Below, piece after piece: positions 4,054 to 25,966 of a stretch of DNA of 64,000 nt. This DNA is from an uncultured Candidatus Poseidoniales archaeon. Lineage in GTDB: Archaea; Thermoplasmatota; Poseidoniia; Poseidoniales; Poseidoniaceae. The notes beneath the pieces are model-generated. The model saw only the letters and a program-made list of their open reading frames with translations, was not told where the DNA came from and ran no database searches. Positions within the stretch are counted from its first letter, which is position 1, and each line of letters begins with the position of its first letter. Both the position numbers and the translations under genes were made by a program. The stretch covers positions 5,773 through 69,772 of the forward strand of contig CAJJAP010000004.1 in assembly GCA_905182185.1 (NCBI GenBank), written 5' to 3'.

Positions 4054-7000
4054 CAGCTCTCACCTCCATCATACTCAGATGCATCTTCCCATGCACCAAG
4101 ATCGTCTTCTGCTACTTCATGTTCAAAGGACTCTCTATCAACAAGAGTCTTTCCTTCAGTTCCAAGTGCATCATCGACAATTACATCAATGTTGAACGCA
4201 GAGCCGTGAACACCTCTTGAAGGGTCGATACCATCTTCACCATATGAGAATTGAATAATACGATTTGCAGTATTACGCACAGAGAACATATTATCGCTGG
4301 TAACCTTCAAGTCATCCATTGCGTTAATCAAACGGCGTTGCATATATCCAGACTTAGATGTACGAACCGCTGTATCTACCAGTGATTCTCTACCGGAAAC
4401 AGAGAGCATGAAAAACTCCGTTGGCCTTAATCCACGCTTGAAAGAAGAATCGATGAAACCTCTTTCACTAGCACCTCGACCTCCACGTTGGAAGTGAGGA
4501 AGAACACGGTCTAGGTATCCACGTTCTAGACGCTTACCACGAACCTTTGCTTGACCAATAGAACCTGCCATCATCGTCAAGTTGTCCATAGAACCACGAG
4601 CACCTGAAATAGCCATGTTAACCGCAGCGTTTGTAGAACCAGATTGGTTTAATTCATCCTTTGCAATATCTCCAGCAGTTTGCTTACCTTCATCCAACAT
4701 AACCATGATATTCTCTTCTAGAGTTTCACGGGTTGTACGACCAGGTCTGGTTTCGTAATTCTTTCCATCCTTACCAAACTTTTTAAGTTCTGAGTTTACT
4801 AATTGACGTGCATCTTCATTCGCTTGTTCAATAGCGCTCAATGCCTCAGCAGTCAAATCTTCATCATCAATACCTGTTGTAAATCCGAGAGATGTACAAG
4901 CTGCAATTGTTAATCGTGTGAATTCGTCCAAGAACTTAGCACCTAATTCAGGCCCTTTGGTCTGAACTATCTGGTCCAGTAGACGTCCGTCTTCAGCACC
5001 GATAGCACGCTTGTCTAGAGTTCCTGTGACCTTTCCATCTTTGACTATAACATCATCATTAGAACGACTGCGGAATCGAATATTGATATCGTCTGGAATA
5101 ATCAATGATATGAGATCCGTACCACGGAAAGAATCATTACCATTTTCATCCTTAACAATCTCAGGTAGTTCCCCTGTCCAGTCAATATTACCAAGCATCT
5201 CAAGTCCATGCTTAAAGGAAATAAGGGTACCTGGGCGTGTCAAAAGATAAGCACCGGAGATGTGATCGTGTATTCCACCGATAACCGCTCCACCATAACG
5301 AGGTGTTAGGATGTGCTCTTGTACTCTCATCAAAATATTAGCTTCTGCACGAGCCTCTTCGGATTGGATAATATGCAAGTTCATTTCGTCACCATCAAAA
5401 TCAGCGTTATATGGTGTACAAACCGCTAAGTTGAAACGGAAAGTACGACCTTCCATTACACGAACTTCGTGTACCATCATAGACATTCTGTGAAGAGAAG
5501 GTTGACGGTTGAAAATTACTACATCCCCATCTACTAAGTGACGTTCAACCAAAAGACCAGGCTTCGGGTTGCCGTTTCTATCAACGGTTGACAAACGATC
5601 TTCAACAAAGGTTCGGTCTCCCCATTCATCTTCAGGACTTCCACAATGTGGACAAGAGATGTTTAGGTGATCTGGAATTGGTTCCGGATGTACCTTATCA
5701 GATTGTGCCAGTTCCCACTTCCACCTGTTGTGAAGAACTGCGCGTGGGTCATCATCTTCAAGAGGATGTCCATCACGATCTTCACCACGAAGGTTAGCGA
5801 TAGTTGCTTCATCATCAACCACGTATTTTTCTTCAGCGATTGAACCATCGATTCCAAGAGAGGTTTCCTTGCGGATTACTAGACCTGGAAGGAAGTTAGG
5901 TGCATGAAGTACAGAATGTAGGTCAGGACGCAGGGTGTTTTCTGCACCGCTCTCACGGCATTCCGGGTTTCCACAGCGGTATCCAGCTTGCATTAGGCGG
6001 CTGCGTTGATTGATACGAACACGGCGACCGTCACCACGAATAATGTAGTTAACACCAGGGTGTACATCAGGTCCACGAAGAATCATATGTCGCATTTGCT
6101 CCTTGTTTCTTGTAGTAACACGGATTGGAACTGTTAATTCCTTAGCGGTTACCAATGGGACACCAACTTCGTTAACACTGAGGTATGGGTCTGGTGAGAT
6201 AACTGAACGTGCACAGAAGTTAACACGCTTACCGGATAGGTTAGAACGGAATCGCCCTTCCTTACCCTTCAAACGCTGTGTTAGAGTCTTCAGTGTACGA
6301 CCTGAACGATGACGTGCAGGAGGAATTCCTGCTGTTTGGTTATCGAAATAGGTAGTAATATGGTATTGTAGAAGTTCCCACAAATCCTCAACGATCAGTT
6401 GCGGAGCACCAGTATCACGGTTCTCTCTTAGACGCTGATTGATTCTCAATACATCGACTAACTTGTGCGTTAAATCGTCTTCTGAACGGTCACCGCTATC
6501 CAAAGTAATGGATGGGCGAACGGTGATTGGAGGAACTGGAAGAGCCTTTAGAACGATCCATTCTGGACGATTTAGCTTGTCCATACCAATGAAGATTAGA
6601 TGCTCGGAAGGAATACCACGAAGCCATTCTCTGACATCTCGTGGGTTGAGTTTCCTCTCAGTTTCCTTACCAGTACCTGCATTGTCAATTCTCTCTTTGA
6701 AAGTTGTTGGCTTGTCGAGCATAATCTTACCCTGTAAGTTGTCACAGTGCATACATTGCTTTCTCTTTACACCAGAAGTTACCTTCTCAACTTCTTTGAT
6801 AATCTTTGTAAACTCTGTTGAACCGACACCGTGCTTGGTGATGATATCACGAATTCTTGAACGGTAATAATCTTGCTCAGAATGCTCTACGTTAGTTGGA
6901 GAAGTTCCTGCTTCATCGTGCAGTAGAATCTTGTTACAATTGTTACATGTAGACTTCAAAGCGGTCTTGATCAAGTTTACGAAACCGATGTGTATAACCG

Positions 7001-17168: not shown

Positions 17169-17401
17169 TCACTTCACCTTTCGTGTCCACGAGTAGGTAG
17201 TCAATCAAACCTTTCATTGCTAGACTCAACAATATTGTAAAAAATGGAAGATTTAACATTCCCAGAAGATTAAATTTCATAGGAATTACCCCCTATTATA
17301 CGGATATTCAAAACGCAACACTGCGAGTCATTTATCCATCACAATTGCAAGCAATGTTTAAGGGGTCCACCCAAGTCGCTAAGAACATCTTGGGTGCTGC
17401 T

Positions 17402-18217
17402 ATGCGAGTTGGTTCTTTTTCTACGAGAATTACCCTTCTTTTGGGGCTGGTAGGGCTATTGCTACTTCCGAGCCTTGCAACATCATATCACACCGGCATT
17501 GGAGGAGAACAATCCAATGCTGGAGAGACTATTGATGATGTGGCAAAGCAAGGCTGCTTATGCCATAATGGCGCAGCTGATAATTCGATTCAGGTAATTC
17601 TTGACAAAGTCCCATATGCTTGGAATGCTGGCGACACATATGAATTCAACTTGCAACTAATCGGCGGACCTGCTGGCGGAATTTATACCGCTGGATTTTC
17701 AATGCGCACTAGTGCAGGCGAACTATCCGGCACAGACCTACAAAACTGGGAAGAAGACGTGACAACACTCACTCATACCGACGCATCTGCAAGCAAAGAT
17801 GACCGTTCGTGGCTTTTGACATGGACCGCTCCTGCTGCGGGAGAAGGTAGCGTTAATTTCTGGATTACTGGGAATTCGGTTTCAGGCGAGGGACTCCCTG
17901 GTGAAGATGACAAGTGGAATCAATTATTATTCGCCCTTCAGGAAGGAGATGCAGATAGTATCGCCCTTGGAACAAGAACTTTGTTTGCTGGTGATGGAAA
18001 TGTTAGCCCTCCTGCACCCTCTTCACATGGAGTCGATCTACACAGCATGGGAGCCCCGCTAAGAGCGCACTGGCTCGGATTACTCGGATTTGGCGCTGTA
18101 ATCATTGTAATAATATTCTCAGGCCTAATGCTAAGATATGGATTCTCCACCTCCTACAAGGGACGTAGCAATGCTCTACGTCTCCGCTACAAATTGATGC
18201 AGAGAGGTGACCAGTGA
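17402..18217 (+). CDS. Membrane-anchored Reeler/choice-of-anchor-V-like protein with CxCH motif
   Basis: Signal peptide, GCLCH, beta-sandwich-type motifs (WTAPAAGEGSVNFWITGNSV), C-terminal TM; first gene of the respiratory operon. Confidence 0.6.
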   Translation: MRVGSFSTRITLLLGLVGLLLLPSLATSYHTGIGGEQSNAGETIDDVAKQGCLCHNGAADNSIQVILDKVPYAWNAGDTYEFNLQLIGGPAGGIYTAGFSMRTSAGELSGTDLQNWEEDVTTLTHTDASASKDDRSWLLTWTAPAAGEGSVNFWITGNSVSGEGLPGEDDKWNQLLFALQEGDADSIALGTRTLFAGDGNVSPPAPSSHGVDLHSMGAPLRAHWLGLLGFGAVIIVIIFSGLMLRYGFSTSYKGRSNALRLRYKLMQRGDQ

Positions 18218-18660
18218 TGGATGATACAATCACGACCCTGTTGCGAGGTGTTGCAAAAGGAAACATCAGTATCGCTGATGCGAGAACTGCTTTGGAAAGT
18301 GCTTCACTGACTGAAGAACAGATGCAGAAAGCAATCGACCATGGAGTATTCAATCCTGCCGAACTGGGATCCATCGTCAGTGCAACCCTAGCCCCTTCAG
18401 GCGCATCACATCTGGCAATGTTCTTCTTCGTCTGGGGATTATTTTGGAGTTGCTACTGGTCTTTTTCATTAATCTATGGACTACTACATGGTTGGGACCA
18501 ACAACAATTATCATTCCATTTAGCCATGACATTAACGACCATAATAATGATGGGAATAATCTACCTAAAATATATCCTACCTGACACTATTATCGTCAAA
18601 TATGCTATGAATAAGTTCGTAACTGAGCATAAAAAGGACTGGAAGGAGTACAACTGGTGA
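18217..18660 (+). CDS. Hypothetical 2-TM protein in the Rieske/cytochrome b operon
   Basis: 148-aa ORF abutting both neighbours; two hydrophobic helices. Confidence 0.65.
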   Translation: MDDTITTLLRGVAKGNISIADARTALESASLTEEQMQKAIDHGVFNPAELGSIVSATLAPSGASHLAMFFFVWGLFWSCYWSFSLIYGLLHGWDQQQLSFHLAMTLTTIIMMGIIYLKYILPDTIIVKYAMNKFVTEHKKDWKEYNW

Positions 18661-18665
18661 TTATT

Positions 18666-19514
18666 ATGGCTCGCGAATACGAACTCAAACCGGCACCAAG
18701 TGGTGAACAATCTTCTACAAAAACAGCAGGAGATTCATTAATCAATAGACGCCAATTCCTTAGTTATGGATTCAATACTGCCACAGGCGTACTAGCGGCT
18801 TCACTGGGAGTTCTTGGTTTCGCATCCCTATTGCTGCCACCTGGCGGTAGCACCGGTGGCGACCTTGCTGCAAAATACTGGGCTAAGGGTCGTGAAGATG
18901 AGGCATGGTATGGAGCAATGCATGAACAAGTAATGAAGAAATCTGATTTCGTTGCTGAGGCAGCAAAGAGCTCCACCGGAACATCAGGAGCGGCTGGTGT
19001 TTGGAACGGAGTTCCAATAGTAGTAACATATGTAAACCATTCAAAGAATGCTGGAACCCCTTTATCAAATGGTAAAGCACGATTCCAATTCATGGAAGGA
19101 TATGATGGAACTGGAAAATATGTTGGCCATTTTGATGACTTGGCTGATGCAGACCCAAGACTATCACCCTCTGAGAATTTAGTAATGATTTTTGCAAGGT
19201 GTACACATTTGTGCTGCATCCCAGGTTGGCAATTAGTTTCTAACTCTTATACTGAAGATACATGGACTCCAGGCGGAGGTGATGATGGTGGAACAAAATT
19301 ATTCTGTATTTGCCACTCCTCACGTTTCGACCCTACTGCTTTAGAGATGAACACTAATACAAATCGTTCTAATGGTGCTAAATTCAAGTACGCTGGCATT
19401 CGCAGAGCCGGCGGCCCTGCGCCAGTAGGATTACCAATAATCCCGATTGCCATGAATGGCGATATTATTGAAGGATTACCAGATTATGTGGATTGGTACA
19501 CATTTTGCGACTGA
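18666..19514 (+). CDS. Rieske [2Fe-2S] subunit of a cytochrome bc/b6f-type complex
   Basis: Tat-like RRQFL plus TM; boxes CTHLCC and CICHSSRF; GGPAPVGLP; GGTGA RBS. Confidence 0.92.
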   Translation: MAREYELKPAPSGEQSSTKTAGDSLINRRQFLSYGFNTATGVLAASLGVLGFASLLLPPGGSTGGDLAAKYWAKGREDEAWYGAMHEQVMKKSDFVAEAAKSSTGTSGAAGVWNGVPIVVTYVNHSKNAGTPLSNGKARFQFMEGYDGTGKYVGHFDDLADADPRLSPSENLVMIFARCTHLCCIPGWQLVSNSYTEDTWTPGGGDDGGTKLFCICHSSRFDPTALEMNTNTNRSNGAKFKYAGIRRAGGPAPVGLPIIPIAMNGDIIEGLPDYVDWYTFCD

Positions 19515-19525
19515 GGTGAAATGAA

Positions 19526-20392
19526 ATGACAACAATGTTTTGGATTCTTTGGTTCTTCATCGTGTTCGTAGTGGTTCTTGTAGCATTCACCCTACGCAAG
19601 GAATCAGAAGAGATGCCTCGTAGAGACATTCTTCGTGCTGTTGAGTCAACAGGAAAAATGGGTGTGGCAGAGCGATCTTTTCTCTGGGTATTCTCTTGGC
19701 TGGATACTAGATTTAGATTACAAGACTATTGGAATATGTCGAAAGGTGCCTACTATAACATGCACAGGCAAATGCCGCTAAGTCACGCAGAAAAGTACAA
19801 ATTGAGAATCATTTGGTACTGGTACCCACTATACTGCCTCGGTGGAATCTCATTCCTATCATTCATTATCTTGGTAATTACCGGAACTGTTCTTGGAATT
19901 TATTACGTACCTGGAGGAGAAGGTGACCCTGCTCCCGCATATGCAAGTATGCAATATATCATGACCGAATTGCCATTTGGATATATCCTTCGTGCGGTTC
20001 ACCATTGGACTACTCACTTTATGGTAGCAAGTGTATTCTTACATATGTGCAGAGTTTACTTTACTGGAGCATACAGAAACCCTCGTGAATTAAACTGGCT
20101 TATTGGAGTCGCACTGATGTTCCTAACCATCTTCTTTGGCTACTCTGGATATTTACTACCTTGGGATTCCTTGGCATATGGTGCTGCTGTTATCGGAATT
20201 AACATGGCCAATTCATCACCGTTGATAGGAAAGATTGCTTCAACTGCCCTATTCGGTGGTACATCGCTAACTCCTCGAACCGTTACAAGAATGTACTTTA
20301 TTCACGTATTTATTCTCCCTGTGATTGTGACATTGTTGATCATCATTCACTTGTTTATTGTCTGGGTGCAGGGCATTGCGGAGCCACATTGA
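19526..20392 (+). CDS. petB: Cytochrome b6-type (split) cytochrome b
   Basis: YCLGG, RAVHHW..FLHMCRVY, RELNWLIG, GYLLPWD, RMYFIHVFILP..IIHL; ends after helix D. Confidence 0.95.
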   Translation: MTTMFWILWFFIVFVVVLVAFTLRKESEEMPRRDILRAVESTGKMGVAERSFLWVFSWLDTRFRLQDYWNMSKGAYYNMHRQMPLSHAEKYKLRIIWYWYPLYCLGGISFLSFIILVITGTVLGIYYVPGGEGDPAPAYASMQYIMTELPFGYILRAVHHWTTHFMVASVFLHMCRVYFTGAYRNPRELNWLIGVALMFLTIFFGYSGYLLPWDSLAYGAAVIGINMANSSPLIGKIASTALFGGTSLTPRTVTRMYFIHVFILPVIVTLLIIIHLFIVWVQGIAEPH

Positions 20393-20411: not shown

Positions 20412-23225
20412 ATGGGATTAGTAGAAAATCTTGGAAGAGTTGCTTCCTCCTACATGGATGAGAAGGAAAACTTGCAGAGCGTTGAAGGAAAGAGAGAACG
20501 TACACGAATGGGACATGCTTTTTGGCCACATGAAGTCCTCCGTGACGTACTTATCTTTTCGTTTATGGGTGCAGTATTGTTATTCTATTCTTGGCTTATA
20601 CCACCACCATTACACAGTGCTGCCGACCCATATGCTCAAGCAGGATTCGTTTTCCCTGATTGGTATGTATTATTTTCATATGGATACCTTCGTTGGGGAG
20701 AGTATCTACCGCAATTCTCCGTACCTACCGGATTCCTAGGAGATATATTTGGTCAACCTTCGTTCCCTTGGAACGCTGCATGGTGGGGAGCTGCTCTTAC
20801 TGGAATTCCAGTAGGAATACTACTACTTCCACCATTGATTGGAGGTCGTGAAAAGAGACCTGTAGAAGACCCTTGGTTTGCAAGTGCAGGCGTAGTATAT
20901 CTTGCACACGTATGGTTTATCTCTGTCTTTTCGATTAATATCTTCTTGAAACTATATGGCAATAATAGATCTGATTATTGTAAATTGGATTCTCATGGAG
21001 ACCTGTTATGTGGTGCAAGAGACCCCTGGGTTGCGGATTTGTTCAATGCCATTCCGTGGATATTGACTGGTATTTTAATATGGATTATTATTTATTTCGT
21101 GGCTAGAACAATGATGGTAAAGGCTTGGGGTGCTGGCTTCACTCCAGCACATGGCAAGAGAATTCTTGTTGGAGCATTGATGGTTTCAACTGCAATATCA
21201 GTTTCTACTTGGGATGTTTATGATGATGGTTTCTGGGATGCAAAGGGATTGCTCACCATTTCCGATTATGAGGAACTTGAAGCGATGAGGTCACAACCAG
21301 TTGATGTTCATGTTCATGATACCAATGAATTTACTGACGCACAAGGTTGGTCTACTACAGAGATAGTACCAACCACTGCTTGGCTTGATTGGAACTTATA
21401 CCAACCCGCTAGATATATTATTACTGATTTTGGCGATGCCAATGGACATCAAGATGCTGCTAATGAAATAAATGCTGCAGCGGTCACAGATTCATTCTCT
21501 GGAGAGGCTGAATGGATTGCAATAGGCTCATTTACAGTTACTGAAGATTCAACCTACTTCCCTTATGGGCATCACAAGTCTGTAGAAACAATTACCACTG
21601 ATATGAAGTGCGAGTATAGATCTAGTGAAAGAAAGATCGGTGAATTATCTACTGCCGATATGTTGACTTCAACTTTCATGGTTACCGACTCATCTGGAAA
21701 GACAGTTTCATCATTCACTGGATGTGATGGAGCAACTGTTGAACTCAAGGTTGGAACCTATGACTACCAAATGACTGTCCAAGCAACTGGTTTACTTGCT
21801 CAAAACTCCTCAATTATGACTGAAGCTTCTATGGAGATCGCTTCATTCCAACCACTATTGGTTTGGGACGAGGATGCTCACTCAAGTCTTGCTGGTACGA
21901 GTGTCAATCTTTCAAGTTCCGAGGATATGGCTCTTGGAGATGGAAAATTCGCACCTATTGAGAATCCATCGTATCATAGAAATCCTAAATCCTTAGATGC
22001 AAAACTTACCTATGCTATGTTTATTCCATGTCTAACATTCGGCGCCCTTGTATTCGTATTACTAAGATACATGGCTCGTGGATATGAGTTCGAGATGAAC
22101 AAGTGCTACGGCTGTGACCTTTGTGATGATGCTTGTCCTGTCCGCCTATTCACTGGTGGAGACAAATTAAACATCATTTACAATTCTTGGAATAACGAAG
22201 ATGATGGTGTCCCGATGTATTCATGTTTGACATGTTCTGCTTGTACTAACGCCTGTCCGCAACTTGTCGATTACGACTCTTATGTAGATATTAGGCGTGG
22301 ACTAATTGTTGGTGCATCTCAAGCAGAGATACCTCACACTGTCCTTCAAGCAGTTCTTGCTGCTGAGGCAGAGGAAGAAGCCGATGCAGACTTCATCACA
22401 ACCGAAGATTATCCAATTAATTCCAAGGTGGGATACTATCCTGGATGTGTCGACTATCTTGACCAAGAGATGGTATTTTCACATGTCAATGATGGTGAGA
22501 TGAACTTAGGAGCCTCAACAACCGCTGCTTTCACTTTGTTTGAAGAGATGGGCAACGAAGTTTCATATCTTGGAAGAGACTTCCTAAAGTGCTGTGGCCA
22601 CGATCAAAAGTGGCAAGGTCTTGATGAAGTGTTTGAAAAACTAAAGGCATACAATCAACGTAAGATTGAGGAATCTGGAATAGATACCCTCGTATCTTCT
22701 TGTGCTGAATGTTTCAGAACATTTGCTCGGGATTATGAGCTAGAAGGTATCAAGGTAATGCACACAACTGAATATCTAACCGAGCAAGGATTTGATATGA
22801 ACTTGAGTACTGAAGAGACCACTGTGACATATCATGACCCATGTAGACTAGGACGTCAAATGGGAGTCTATGATGAACCACGTGATTTGATTACAGCCGT
22901 TGAGGGTGTTAATTTGGTTGAGATGGAACATAGTGGAGAGGATGCAATGTGTTGTGGTGTTTCGAGCATGATGTCATGTAACGAAGATGCTCGTTCACTT
23001 CGTGTATCTCGTATGGAAGAAATCCGTGCTACTGGAGCAGATACGATGCTCACATCGTGTCCTAAATGTGTTGCTCACTTTGAGTGTTTGAAGTTTGAAG
23101 GTGATGAACAGTATGCAGATATTGAAATCCTTGATGTTGTTACATTCTTGGCACGACAAGTTGATGCAAAGAAATCTGAACTAGTTGCTGCAAATACTGA
23201 TGCACAAGACCAAATCAAAGCTTGA
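20412..23225 (+). CDS. Cytochrome b subunit IV (PetD-like) fused to an extracellular domain and an HdrD/GlpC-like 2x[4Fe-4S] + 2xCCG oxidoreductase
   Basis: FWPHEVLRD, AADP, FPDWY; then CYGCDLCDDACP and CLTCSACTNACP; YYPGC, CCG, SCAEC, YHDPCRLGR, CCG, SCPKC. Confidence 0.9.
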   Translation: MGLVENLGRVASSYMDEKENLQSVEGKRERTRMGHAFWPHEVLRDVLIFSFMGAVLLFYSWLIPPPLHSAADPYAQAGFVFPDWYVLFSYGYLRWGEYLPQFSVPTGFLGDIFGQPSFPWNAAWWGAALTGIPVGILLLPPLIGGREKRPVEDPWFASAGVVYLAHVWFISVFSINIFLKLYGNNRSDYCKLDSHGDLLCGARDPWVADLFNAIPWILTGILIWIIIYFVARTMMVKAWGAGFTPAHGKRILVGALMVSTAISVSTWDVYDDGFWDAKGLLTISDYEELEAMRSQPVDVHVHDTNEFTDAQGWSTTEIVPTTAWLDWNLYQPARYIITDFGDANGHQDAANEINAAAVTDSFSGEAEWIAIGSFTVTEDSTYFPYGHHKSVETITTDMKCEYRSSERKIGELSTADMLTSTFMVTDSSGKTVSSFTGCDGATVELKVGTYDYQMTVQATGLLAQNSSIMTEASMEIASFQPLLVWDEDAHSSLAGTSVNLSSSEDMALGDGKFAPIENPSYHRNPKSLDAKLTYAMFIPCLTFGALVFVLLRYMARGYEFEMNKCYGCDLCDDACPVRLFTGGDKLNIIYNSWNNEDDGVPMYSCLTCSACTNACPQLVDYDSYVDIRRGLIVGASQAEIPHTVLQAVLAAEAEEEADADFITTEDYPINSKVGYYPGCVDYLDQEMVFSHVNDGEMNLGASTTAAFTLFEEMGNEVSYLGRDFLKCCGHDQKWQGLDEVFEKLKAYNQRKIEESGIDTLVSSCAECFRTFARDYELEGIKVMHTTEYLTEQGFDMNLSTEETTVTYHDPCRLGRQMGVYDEPRDLITAVEGVNLVEMEHSGEDAMCCGVSSMMSCNEDARSLRVSRMEEIRATGADTMLTSCPKCVAHFECLKFEGDEQYADIEILDVVTFLARQVDAKKSELVAANTDAQDQIKA

Positions 23226-23269: not shown

Positions 23270-23965
23270 GTGTTGTCACTAGCGCCATTCATGAACAGAC
23301 CTGCTTTGTATGTACTTACAATCGGCATCGGTTTGTACATCAGTGCTACTGGCCTGAATGGAATCATTCCGGACCATTGGGCTGAATGGCCAGTCAATAT
23401 TTGGTGCTGGTCTGTATTTGCATATATATTCTATAAGACCACTCGAAAGGAGCGTATTGAGATGCTGACTGTGTTGGCATTTGCCACCCCAATGGAACTA
23501 TTTTTTAGTGAAGTTTGGCTAATCTATGAATACCAACGAGGACTAATGCCCCTATTCGTTCCAGTGGGTCATTATTTCTTATTTGACCTGGGCAGGATTA
23601 TCGCCAATAAGATGAGAGAGAACCTCGCCATAATTTGCTTGACCCCATTTATTCCACTTGTCGCTTATGGCGTTTATAGCGGTGGCGATACGTCTGCGTT
23701 ATTCCTCCTGATACTGGTACTCGCATTCACAAAATGGGGACCTCAACCTCGATTATATGTTGCAATGGCTTGGGCGGCCTTAGCTATGGAATTATGGGGC
23801 ACACACTTGACCAATTGGACATGGGCTAACGAAGTCCCATGGACGGGACTAACCGCTTGGAATCCACCGCTATTGGTTGGTGCATTCTATTGTGTTGGAG
23901 ATTTATTGGTCAACCTTAGTGTTGCCAAGTTTGAAAGAGAAGTGACGGCTGAGGTGGTAGTATGA
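23270..23965 (+). CDS. Hypothetical multi-pass membrane protein
   Basis: 231-aa ORF with about 7 hydrophobic segments; overlaps the ferredoxin start (ATGA). Confidence 0.7.
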   Translation: MLSLAPFMNRPALYVLTIGIGLYISATGLNGIIPDHWAEWPVNIWCWSVFAYIFYKTTRKERIEMLTVLAFATPMELFFSEVWLIYEYQRGLMPLFVPVGHYFLFDLGRIIANKMRENLAIICLTPFIPLVAYGVYSGGDTSALFLLILVLAFTKWGPQPRLYVAMAWAALAMELWGTHLTNWTWANEVPWTGLTAWNPPLLVGAFYCVGDLLVNLSVAKFEREVTAEVVV

Positions 23966-24294
23966 CCACCAGTGACGAGTTGGCGACGAGACGAGCGGCT
24001 GAGGCTCTGGCCATCCGTACATCTCTAAATCGTCAGCGCGGAGTGCAGCGCGCTAATACAAAGGGTGGTGAAGGAACTGTTGCCTATGTTACTGCAGAGA
24101 AATGTATTGGCTGCGATCAATGTACAATCGTCTGTGATGATAATGCAATTGACATATACAAAGTAGAGATGGCCAGTCAATTCATCAAAGTGGAAAGTAA
24201 TCGCAAGGCCAAGATTATTCGCGATGCTTGTACTGGCTGTAGATTGTGCGTACTCGCTTGTCCTACAGACGCTATAACAATGATTGATTTGTGA
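23962..24294 (+). CDS. 2x[4Fe-4S] dicluster ferredoxin with N-terminal extension
   Basis: CIGCDQCTIVC and CTGCRLCVLACP. Confidence 0.9.
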   Translation: MTTSDELATRRAAEALAIRTSLNRQRGVQRANTKGGEGTVAYVTAEKCIGCDQCTIVCDDNAIDIYKVEMASQFIKVESNRKAKIIRDACTGCRLCVLACPTDAITMIDL

Positions 24295-24736: not shown

Positions 24737-25966
24737 TCAAACAGATGATTCATTAGCATACTTTATTGCTTCAGCACCCATTGCCAACATCGACAATTCT
24801 GCTACTAAAGCATGCCATCCCTTTGCATGCTCTCCATAGAGATGACCCACTTCAGATGAATCAAAGAATTCTGCACTAGGCGAGTTCAAATTATCCATAT
24901 CACCCTTCTTAGCATTTATTCTATAGAACCAGGATGCGGCTTCACCATCGACCAAATAAACAACAGGTTCAACTGGTGCTCCACCTTCTTCTGTTAGAAG
25001 AGTTGGAACTCCTTCTTGAATTAAGAAATTTTCAACATCTGCACCGCCTTTGGAATACATTAGTTTCTTCATTTTTCTATTGGACAGTTCAAGTAACTGC
25101 TCTCCCCGCTTGACCGCCATAATACCGAGTCCATATGTTCCTCTATCATTTTTTACAAAAACAACAGGCTCTCTTTCGATTCCAAGGGATTCATATTTTT
25201 CTTTAATCTGTTTAATAAATTCGTCTACTTCTGCCGCTAATTCAATCCTGCAATTCTCTTTTTCAAGACATTTATTCTTTGAAACAAACCAATTCGCCAT
25301 CAAATGCCAACTATCAATTTCTAACAATTGTGCCATCTCATCAACATATTGCTGCAAACAAGCATAATGTTCTGATTTCCTACGGCGATGCCATCCCATA
25401 CTCGGAGGCGGGCTCACATTATTGGCAGACAATCCAGGCACTATCCCTTCAGTAAGATCATTATTTAGCAATATCAAGCAAGGTCTTTCCCCTTCTACGA
25501 ATAACTCTTCCTTCCCATTTTCAAGTTTTAATTCAACTGTTGACAATTGCAACGGACCTGAAATCCCTGCCAAAGAACCATGAGCAGATAATTCAGGTGA
25601 ACCAACTGTACATCTGAAACCGGAAAGGTGTATTAAACGTTGAATAGTCGCTACATTCTCGACATATCCTGCATTCCGAGTATGTGATTCAGGGTACAGA
25701 TGAACCCATTCACATTTGGTTTTAAGTCTTAAAATATGATTTTTAAGAAGATTTGCAAGATGTGGTTCATCCTCCTTTGAAACATTGTTGAATCCGGCTG
25801 GAAAGTGATTGGCATCAACAACTGCGACCTTCCATCCAGCATCCCTCACATCAACACTACCATAGATTGGAATTGGCACTTCACTGCGCTTCTTTGCCAT
25901 CCATGCTGTGATCTGTTCTCTCTTAGATTCAAGTATTTGTGAGTATTCATGCACGTAATTCATCAT
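24737..25966 (-). CDS. gshA: Glutamate--cysteine ligase (GshA, PF08886-type ATP-grasp family)
   Basis: PIYGSVDVRDAGWKVAVVDANHFPAGFNN, ILLNNDL, VKNDRGTYGLGIM, IQEGVPT. Confidence 0.85.
   Translation of the reverse strand: MMNYVHEYSQILESKREQITAWMAKKRSEVPIPIYGSVDVRDAGWKVAVVDANHFPAGFNNVSKEDEPHLANLLKNHILRLKTKCEWVHLYPESHTRNAGYVENVATIQRLIHLSGFRCTVGSPELSAHGSLAGISGPLQLSTVELKLENGKEELFVEGERPCLILLNNDLTEGIVPGLSANNVSPPPSMGWHRRRKSEHYACLQQYVDEMAQLLEIDSWHLMANWFVSKNKCLEKENCRIELAAEVDEFIKQIKEKYESLGIEREPVVFVKNDRGTYGLGIMAVKRGEQLLELSNRKMKKLMYSKGGADVENFLIQEGVPTLLTEEGGAPVEPVVYLVDGEAASWFYRINAKKGDMDNLNSPSAEFFDSSEVGHLYGEHAKGWHALVAELSMLAMGAEAIKYANESSV

Follow-up and report, generated by a model that had tools for sequence, protein, structure and literature searches.

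An intact CxGG motif, and with it a predicted haem ci, in the b6-type cytochrome b of Marine Group II archaea

Does the cytochrome b of Marine Group II (MGII) archaea carry haem ci (also termed cn), the covalently bound third haem known from b6-type enzymes? The question is raised by an open reading frame (ORF) at positions 19526-20392 of a 64,000-nucleotide stretch of DNA (the window, meaning the whole stretch that was analysed) from an uncultured Candidatus Poseidoniales archaeon (assembly GCA_905182185.1, contig CAJJAP010000004.1, forward-strand positions 5,773 to 69,772). This ORF is the haem-binding half of a split, b6-type cytochrome b and belongs to the sole Rieske/cytochrome b complex of a member of Marine Group IIa (MGIIa; Poseidoniaceae). 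Its Cys104 is, by alignment, the positional homologue of the cysteine to which haem ci is joined by a single thioether in b6 of cyanobacteria and chloroplasts, and we regard it as probable that the MGII enzyme carries covalent haem ci at this residue. Such a haem would lie at the cytoplasmic quinone-reduction (Qi/Qn) site beside haem bH, would pass electrons between haem bH and quinone, and would be the haem nearest to the cytoplasmic iron-sulfur (Fe-S) chain that is fused to subunit IV. The gene and its principal elements are as follows.

19526..20392, + strand: cytochrome b of the b6 (short) type, 288 amino acids, four core helices and an extra N-terminal transmembrane helix
19532..19594, + strand: the extra N-terminal hydrophobic helix, residues 3-23 (hydropathy peak 5-23, predicted helix 3-23)
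19832..19846, + strand: YCLGG, the CxGG haem-ci (cn) motif, residues 103-107 within YPLYCLGG; Cys104 is the codon TGC at 19835-19837
20000..20044, + strand: helix-B haem ligands His159 (20000-20002) and His173 (20042-20044), invariant columns aligned with b6 His86 and His100
20303..20350, + strand: helix-D haem ligands His260 (20303) and His275 (20348), with 14 residues between them, the b6-type spacing

The 288-residue protein matches the Pfam family Cytochrome_B (PF00033) at 3.5e-41, and in a PDB sequence search its closest solved structures are cytochromes b6 (top match 1vf5_A, E 6.5e-44, approximately 41% identity over the core), while the long cytochromes b of the bc1/bcc type rank lower (about 1e-29 or weaker). 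Likewise, the fold predicted by AlphaFold resembles b6: the core of the model (residues 110-280) has a predicted local distance difference test (pLDDT) score of about 90, and the best nine Foldseek matches are cytochromes b6, with template modelling scores of 0.74-0.80 by target length and a root-mean-square deviation of 1.9 Å over 177-183 columns. Against NCBIfam, the protein scores 195 bits for cytochrome b6 (PRK03735; curated cut-off 325) and 211.7 for ExtP (NF040969; curated cut-off 290), being related to both families and an equivalog of neither. It is encoded by the only cytochrome b gene in this 1.55-Mb genome, which is 63% complete.

All four haem-ligand columns are invariant, with His260 and His275 aligned to b6 His187 and His202, and the four residues can ligate the two b haems in the usual pairs, His159/His260 the outer (p-side) and His173/His275 the inner (n-side) one. 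The spacing of 14 in helix D is shared with Bacillales QcrB and b6, whereas bc1-type proteins have 13. The gene is split after helix D, the subunit IV ORF beginning at 20412, 19 nucleotides past the end of the cytochrome b gene at 20392, and the start of this second ORF (FWPHE, PDWY) matches in the PDB only subunit IV of b6f, weakly (E 0.12). The helix total nevertheless departs from the seven (4 + 3) of b6-type enzymes: the cytochrome b has five hydrophobic helices, and the subunit IV fusion adds about six. The extra N-terminal helix has no counterpart in b6 or QcrB; since tblastn matches in loci of both MGIIa and MGIIb begin at residue 1-7, the extension is conserved as protein. A sequence-only reading of the window had placed the YCLGG cysteine at codon 19835-19837 and the helix-D histidines at 20303 and 20348, 14 residues apart, in a gene separate from subunit IV, and all of this is borne out. 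It had also taken the spacing and the split gene as the mark of b6-type enzymes; both are present, but neither implies haem ci, because haloarchaea have both without the cysteine (PMC3509893).

The case for haem ci therefore turns on the cysteine itself. In the alignment, the segment LYCLGGISF lies over b6 FYCLGGITL from residue 33, and because LYC (102-104) is set on b6 FYC (33-35), Cys104 is the counterpart of b6 Cys35. It also falls on the cysteine of real Bacillales QcrB sequences (YCFGG), where the covalent haem of Bacillus QcrB is presumed to be attached, and is located inside helix A, in exactly the b6/QcrB context. The nearest species-level matches are Poseidonia/Poseidoniaceae metagenome-assembled genomes (MAGs) of MGIIa at 90-93% identity, followed by Thalassarchaeaceae (MGIIb) at approximately 78-81%, and across 41 MGII species loci from both groups YPLYCLGGI is kept without exception (41/41). 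The underlying DNA occurs as 40 distinct 27-mers, with the Cys104 codon divided between TGC (22 loci) and TGT (19), so the invariance of the motif is not due to chance. For an order-wide scan, we used a degenerate DNA pattern for YPLYxLGGI that left the cysteine codon free, together with a control pattern. The motif pattern was present in 369 of 401 Poseidoniales genomes, including 66 of the 67 of high quality, while the control gave 0 matches, and the free codon was TGY in all 150 among the matches listed. The CxGG motif is thus under strong purifying selection across the whole order, with synonymous sites saturated. Alignment with b6 and Bacillus QcrB and conservation across MGII were both checks proposed along with the idea of haem ci, and the idea survives the two of them; the covalent haem itself remains a prediction from sequence.

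Beyond MGII, in comparison sets of 120 aligned homologues and 80 genome loci, CxGG was also found in MAGs labelled Thermoplasmata, Thermoplasmatota, Methanomassiliicoccales and, in one case, 'Halobacteria archaeon'. The MGII protein groups with these other CxGG archaea, apart from the haloarchaeal clade (Shimodaira-Hasegawa-like approximate likelihood ratio test values of 86 and 90, unstarred). In all sampled haloarchaea and in a Marine Group IV (MGIV) MAG, the cysteine is replaced by Ala, Ser or Thr and the second glycine of the motif is also lost. The haloarchaeal form looks like a degenerate derivative. Earlier comparative surveys had placed the motif elsewhere: Baymann et al. 2012 counted haloarchaea with the few organisms whose gene is split but lacks the cysteine (PMC3509893), Kao and Hunte confined CxGG to Firmicutes, chloroplasts, cyanobacteria and one bacterial clade (PMC4122944), and Dibrova et al. 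2017 described an archaeal short-cytochrome-b subfamily N without the motif (PMC5600118). None of these three included MGII genomes, and the MGII literature speaks only of 'a cytochrome b and a Rieske protein' (PMC6336850). No report of a CxGG motif in archaea was found in the searchable literature, and the MGII gene is the first archaeal b6-type cytochrome b with an intact motif that we found described, an arrangement that is the norm in MGII.

If haem ci is bound, its surroundings should be recognisable. In b6, residues within 4 Å of haem cn or in its propionate network are Val30, Cys35, Leu41, Phe203, Ile206, Ile211, Lys24 and Arg207, joined on the side of subunit IV by Phe40, Val43 and Asn25 (PMC5600118). 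The corresponding sites in the window and the states of subunit IV are listed below.

19793..19795, + strand: Lys90 in an EKY motif, probable counterpart of b6 Lys24 (propionate network), an equivalence inferred where the alignment is less certain
20363..20365, + strand: Trp280, aligned with b6 Arg207 (part of the propionate network and proton path of haem cn)
20541..20546, + strand: Arg44-Asp45 of subunit IV, where helix E begins, adjoining the haem-ci side
Subunit IV positions 44-45, archaea with cysteine or serine: Arg-Asp in 46/46 CxGG loci and in 3 SxGG loci
Subunit IV positions 44-45, other archaea: Arg-Asn in 27 haloarchaea, Arg-Gly in MGIV

The hydrophobic contacts are conservatively retained in MGII as Phe110 (as in Bacillales), Leu276, Val279 and Ile284. 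A gap-free alignment anchored on the WP motif of subunit IV sets PetD WPNDLLY(V/M)FP, Rummeliibacillus QcrC WPDFLLKEWM and MGII WPHEVLRDVL under one another, and on this alignment the archaeal Arg44-Asp45 matches the Lys-Glu of the firmicute; PetD has Tyr-Val/Met (38-39) at this site, and the Phe40 region of the MGII subunit reads R-D-V-L. The predicted pocket would thus be firmicute-like in helix A (Phe110) and subunit IV (Arg44-Asp45), differing from both b6 and QcrB at Trp280. Position 90 is Lys or Arg in all CxGG archaeal sequences, and all 30 haloarchaeal and MGIV sequences have Gln there. The Cys-less haloarchaea and MGIV further differ in the second glycine (now S, L or F), the b6 Leu41 position held by Phe110 (Thr, Val or Ile) and subunit IV Asp45 (Asn or Gly), a pattern which is suggestive of a pocket that is maintained in the presence of the cysteine and decays after an ancient loss of it. 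Their subunit IV also lacks the Fe-S tail.

Attachment of the haem would also have to be accounted for. A profile search for CCB genes, likewise among the proposed checks, found no CCB1, CCB2/4 or YGGT-type CCB3 in the genome of the window, and CCB1 and CCB2/4 reach their curated cut-offs in 0 of 61 Poseidoniales genomes (48 of them at least 90% complete). This absence decides nothing: among the control genomes CCB1 and CCB2/4 pass only in Synechococcus, B. subtilis failing as well, and according to the literature no non-cyanobacterial group with haem cn has the CCB system, and the attachment route in these groups 'remains a mystery' (PMC5600118). Since CCB genes are absent, attachment in MGII would need a CCB-independent route on the cytoplasmic side, as in Bacilli. 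A HEAT-repeat (PBS-lyase-like) maturation candidate was rejected, as it matches 13 of 13 MGII genomes but also 8 of 14 controls, including Cys-less Haloferax; no HEAT-repeat gene lies inside the operon. CcmF-like (about 800-900 amino acids) and CcmC-like (about 240) genes are present in 61 of 61 Poseidoniales genomes, in that of the window at C5:8780-9313 (-). The Ccm system acts on the outer face of the membrane and is therefore irrelevant to a haem on the inner side.

The principal alternative is that the MGII enzyme inherited the motif from an ancestor with haem ci but has since given up covalent binding of a third haem, CxGG being kept for the packing of helix A against haem bH and the Qi site being bc1-like or idle. 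We consider this alternative rather unlikely, yet several observations weigh on its side and against a bound haem ci. At the b6 Arg207 position, b6 and Bacillales have Arg, whereas all archaeal members, Cys-bearing and Cys-less alike, have Trp. A closely related sister subclade with proteins of 315 residues mostly has Ser in place of Cys (FYSLGG) and keeps both an otherwise intact SxGG pocket and the Fe-S module, and Ser also occurs in a single-member MGII metagenome cluster (P0033), the only MGII exception met. The thioether would therefore be dispensable at least sometimes; as the Ser subclade, which includes a Cys-bearing member (P0098), keeps everything else, either its loss of the cysteine is recent or the bond is not indispensable. 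The first glycine and the tyrosine of the motif are conserved even in Cys-less haloarchaea, which means that part of the motif has a role independent of haem ci. With respect to maturation, neither CCB genes nor other candidates were found, and among eight operon genes profiled against the 80 related loci no attachment factor that tracks the cysteine emerged, the distributions of the 148- and 100-residue operon proteins also not following it. Finally, no demonstration of haem ci in any archaeon was found in the searchable literature.

Other evidence argues for the haem and against mere retention. A cysteine with only a structural role would not be expected to stay invariant in approximately 370 genomes in which synonymous change is saturated, and the ancient loss of the cysteine was accompanied by changes at the second glycine, Phe110, Lys90 and subunit IV Asp45. 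Fixed differences between CxGG archaea and haloarchaea occupy 4 of 10 pocket columns compared with 25 of 193 others (one-sided Fisher p 0.039), a statistic that is weak, as it reflects essentially one lineage or event (haloarchaea plus MGIV) and the cysteine and glycine columns, by which the groups are defined, make up two of the four. A lack of CCB genes has not prevented haem binding in Bacilli, covalent haem on Bacillus QcrB being reported in PMC4122944 and PMC5600118, which cite Yu and Le Brun 1998. In a maximum-likelihood tree rooted on the real Bacillales QcrB and b6 sequences (a root that was assumed, not inferred, with some joins on long branches), at least two changes of the cysteine state are required, one on the branch to haloarchaea plus P0081 and one inside the 315-residue clade, and because both bacterial groups carry the cysteine, two losses are the simplest reading.

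A covalent haem ci at Cys104 thus remains the explanation that we favour. Other elements in and beside the operon are as follows.

17345-18217, + strand: choice-of-anchor V domain protein, first gene of the operon (NCBIfam 6.1e-23)
18657..19514, + strand: Rieske iron-sulfur subunit, CTHLCC ... CICHSS (NCBIfam Rieske_proteo 3.8e-9)
20412..23225, + strand: subunit IV fusion, 937 amino acids (Pfam CCG 7.1e-24 and Fer4 families), conserved in MGII loci
20655..20666, + strand: PDWY, the Qo-site motif of subunit IV
23962..24294, + strand: RnfB-like 2x[4Fe-4S] ferredoxin (Pfam Fer4_21 2.8e-14; NCBIfam rnfB 2.9e-12)
24737-25966: gamma-glutamylcysteine ligase gene, adjoining the operon

In related loci, too, the Rieske gene is conserved ahead of that for cytochrome b. 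The 937-residue fusion comprises, in order, the subunit IV core, two extra helices, a beta-rich outer domain of approximately 260 residues (about 270-530), a last transmembrane helix and a terminal module with 2x[4Fe-4S] (two CxxCxxCxxxCP motifs) and 2 CCG domains. Its helices were placed from hydropathy and AlphaFold secondary structure, and as the mean pLDDT of the model is 55, only its secondary structure was used. The N-terminus of subunit IV lies on the n side, and with an even number of helices the module would be located in the cytoplasm, on the same face of the membrane as haem bH and the predicted haem ci. In related clades, a four-helix subunit IV is followed directly by '...GYEYKLNRCYQC...' and a two-cluster domain (L044, L045, L047 and L049). 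At L045 (6921-7952, 7982-8815 and 9442-9654), for example, subunit IV is fused only to the two-[4Fe-4S] domain, with genes for a CCG protein and an RnfB-like ferredoxin downstream, and L044, L047 and L049 share this layout, both separate genes lying directly downstream. Because these genes are separate outside MGII, the MGII protein appears to be a further fusion of a conserved gene set, and the RnfB-like ferredoxin, which adjoins the complex in MGII and in the same four loci, is the obvious candidate partner of the fused module. The haloarchaeal subunit IV (Haloferax, L055:6665-7498) ends in '...EGYMYNLNRRYYRLRPPK' (NRRYYR), at the site where relatives have '...KGYEYKLNRCYQCWLCDDACP' (NRCYQC, the start of the Fe-S domain; L043:6731-7774, window 22077-22130). 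This tail looks like a decayed remnant of the first [4Fe-4S] motif, so the Fe-S domain was probably lost in haloarchaea.

This neighbourhood bears on another role for Cys104, namely that of a redox-active or regulatory thiol, or of a contact to the Fe-S/CCG module, in place of haem attachment. The module is of a type associated with thiol chemistry (CCG, HdrD-like) and is predicted on the same side of the membrane, and the gamma-glutamylcysteine ligase gene stands beside the operon. We nevertheless hold such a role to be highly improbable, as the cysteine is kept where subunit IV has no Fe-S/CCG part (L053, L058 and L075), lies inside helix A in the exact b6/QcrB context and has no second conserved cysteine nearby as a partner.

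Taken together with haem ci, the module suggests a more speculative arrangement, in which haem ci, in MGII and related archaea, would connect a Q-cycle enzyme to a cytoplasmic Fe-S wire that is part of the complex itself (two [4Fe-4S] and two CCG clusters, with the RnfB-like ferredoxin beside it). A soluble reductant could then feed electrons through the wire straight into the Qi site or, alternatively, bifurcation at the Qo site could push electrons outward to a low-potential cytoplasmic acceptor. We consider this arrangement rather unlikely. It would fit the predicted position of the module, and by analogy EtfD offers a working precedent for inward flow: among solved structures, M. smegmatis EtfD (9ojn_A, E 8.6e-25) comes nearest to the module, and in it four clusters carry electrons inward from a cytosolic donor towards a b haem in the membrane and menaquinone (PMC13083937). 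A comparable suggestion was made by Diamond et al. for Ca. Angelarchaeales, where hdrD-like and rnfB-like genes beside complex III were proposed as an entry point for reduced ferredoxin (PMC9038741). Two observations speak against a strict link to haem ci: the Ser subclade still has the module, and CxGG occurs in L053, L058 and L075, where subunit IV ends without an Fe-S part. The two features are therefore not obligatorily coupled. With either direction of flow, the arrangement, if real, would amount to a naturally hard-wired form of the disputed ferredoxin-to-haem-ci route in cyclic flow through b6f.

The fused module was also considered as the cell's ETF:quinone oxidoreductase, a role that we downgraded because the genome has a far closer, stand-alone EtfD orthologue outside the window (685 amino acids, C8:5973-8030 (+); 9ojn_A E 2.5e-99), which makes the module a diverged paralogue. 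EtfB and EtfA are encoded in the same genome at C4:180701-181862. EtfAB was found in 21 of 21 genomes and canonical ETF-QO was absent in 19 of the 21, and MGII probably feed electrons from beta-oxidation to quinone through an EtfD-type enzyme.

The MGII complex can be placed among known systems. With cyanobacterial and chloroplast b6 (PetB) it shares the four-helix core, the four histidines, the spacing of 14, the split point and the position of the cysteine (FYCLGG/YCLGG). It differs in the extra N-terminal helix with approximately 70 more N-terminal residues, in Trp for Arg207 and Val for Lys208, and in a C-terminus that reads AEPH. Its subunit IV has PDWY instead of the PEWY of PetD and Arg-Asp where PetD has Tyr-Val/Met before Phe40, and the enzyme, in contrast to b6f, is respiratory and not photosynthetic, is encoded without CCB1 and CCB2/4, and has no genes for cytochrome f or PetG/L/M/N that were seen in the operon. 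The Bacillales QcrB/QcrC enzyme (menaquinol:cytochrome c reductase, b6c-type) has in common with it the split gene, CxGG, the spacing of 14, PDWY, the lack of CCB, Phe at the b6 Leu41 position and a basic-acidic pair at the start of helix E (Lys-Glu, Arg-Asp in MGII). However, QcrB, at 35-40% identity, retains Arg207 and an RKQGISGPL tail, and QcrC bears a C-terminal cytochrome c domain on the outside where the MGII subunit bears its Fe-S/CCG module inside.

The closest characterised archaeal relatives, at 47-56% identity, are the split cytochromes b of the haloarchaeal halocyanin cluster, which likewise have the VWxQG[IV]AEPH tail, PDWY, the split gene, the spacing of 14 and more than seven helices in total in the complex (PMC3509893), but have Ala, Ser or Thr for the cysteine, no second glycine, Gln for Lys/Arg90 and Asn for Asp45. 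At the complex III locus of Ca. Angelarchaeales (PMC9038741), an HdrD-like protein and an RnfB-like ferredoxin likewise accompany the cytochrome b complex; by the published description, the genes are separate there, whereas they are fused in MGII, and haem ci and CxGG are not discussed. Mycobacterial EtfD (9ojn) shares the 2x[4Fe-4S] and 2xCCG module but has its own five-helix, one-haem membrane domain.

A full CxGG motif is standard in MGII, which rank among the most abundant archaea of the surface ocean, and several other Thermoplasmatota-type lineages have it as well. This provides a revised character map for arguments on the origin of b6f-type enzymes and on interdomain transfer. If the haem is present, archaea would be added to the groups whose haem attachment on the cytoplasmic side dispenses with CCB proteins, and a haem-ci site beside a covalently tethered Fe-S chain would be the arrangement required for testing electron uptake by haem ci from the n side.

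Several minor observations were made on the same genes. In helix B, His160 and His164 are invariant in all CxGG and SxGG archaeal sequences and are Arg and Gln in haloarchaea, and many further fixed differences from haloarchaea concentrate in the N-terminal stretch and helix A (residues 85-128). On one MGII contig, the cytochrome b frame (P0064, 385 amino acids) continues past QGIAE into the start of subunit IV ('...MENFGRVASTYMDEKDK...HAFWPH'), which reflects either an error of assembly or a natural re-fusion of the two halves. Another sequence (P0075, 501 amino acids) has a CxGG cytochrome b fused to a plastocyanin-like copper domain (PF00127), which hints at a blue copper protein as the outer-side acceptor in some lineages. 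Only seven CxxCH-containing ORFs were found in the 63%-complete genome, and a 204-residue protein (contig C9, minus strand, start 39071) is the only one among them that resembles a secreted lipoprotein-like cytochrome c. Within the operon, a 231-residue multi-helix membrane protein (23270-23965, + strand) has no family match and occurs only in MGIIa loci, being absent from MGIIb and all other relatives. The choice-of-anchor V gene has four paralogues in the genome (on contigs C4, C5, C9 and C10), and a homologue heads the operon in L044, L045 and L053.

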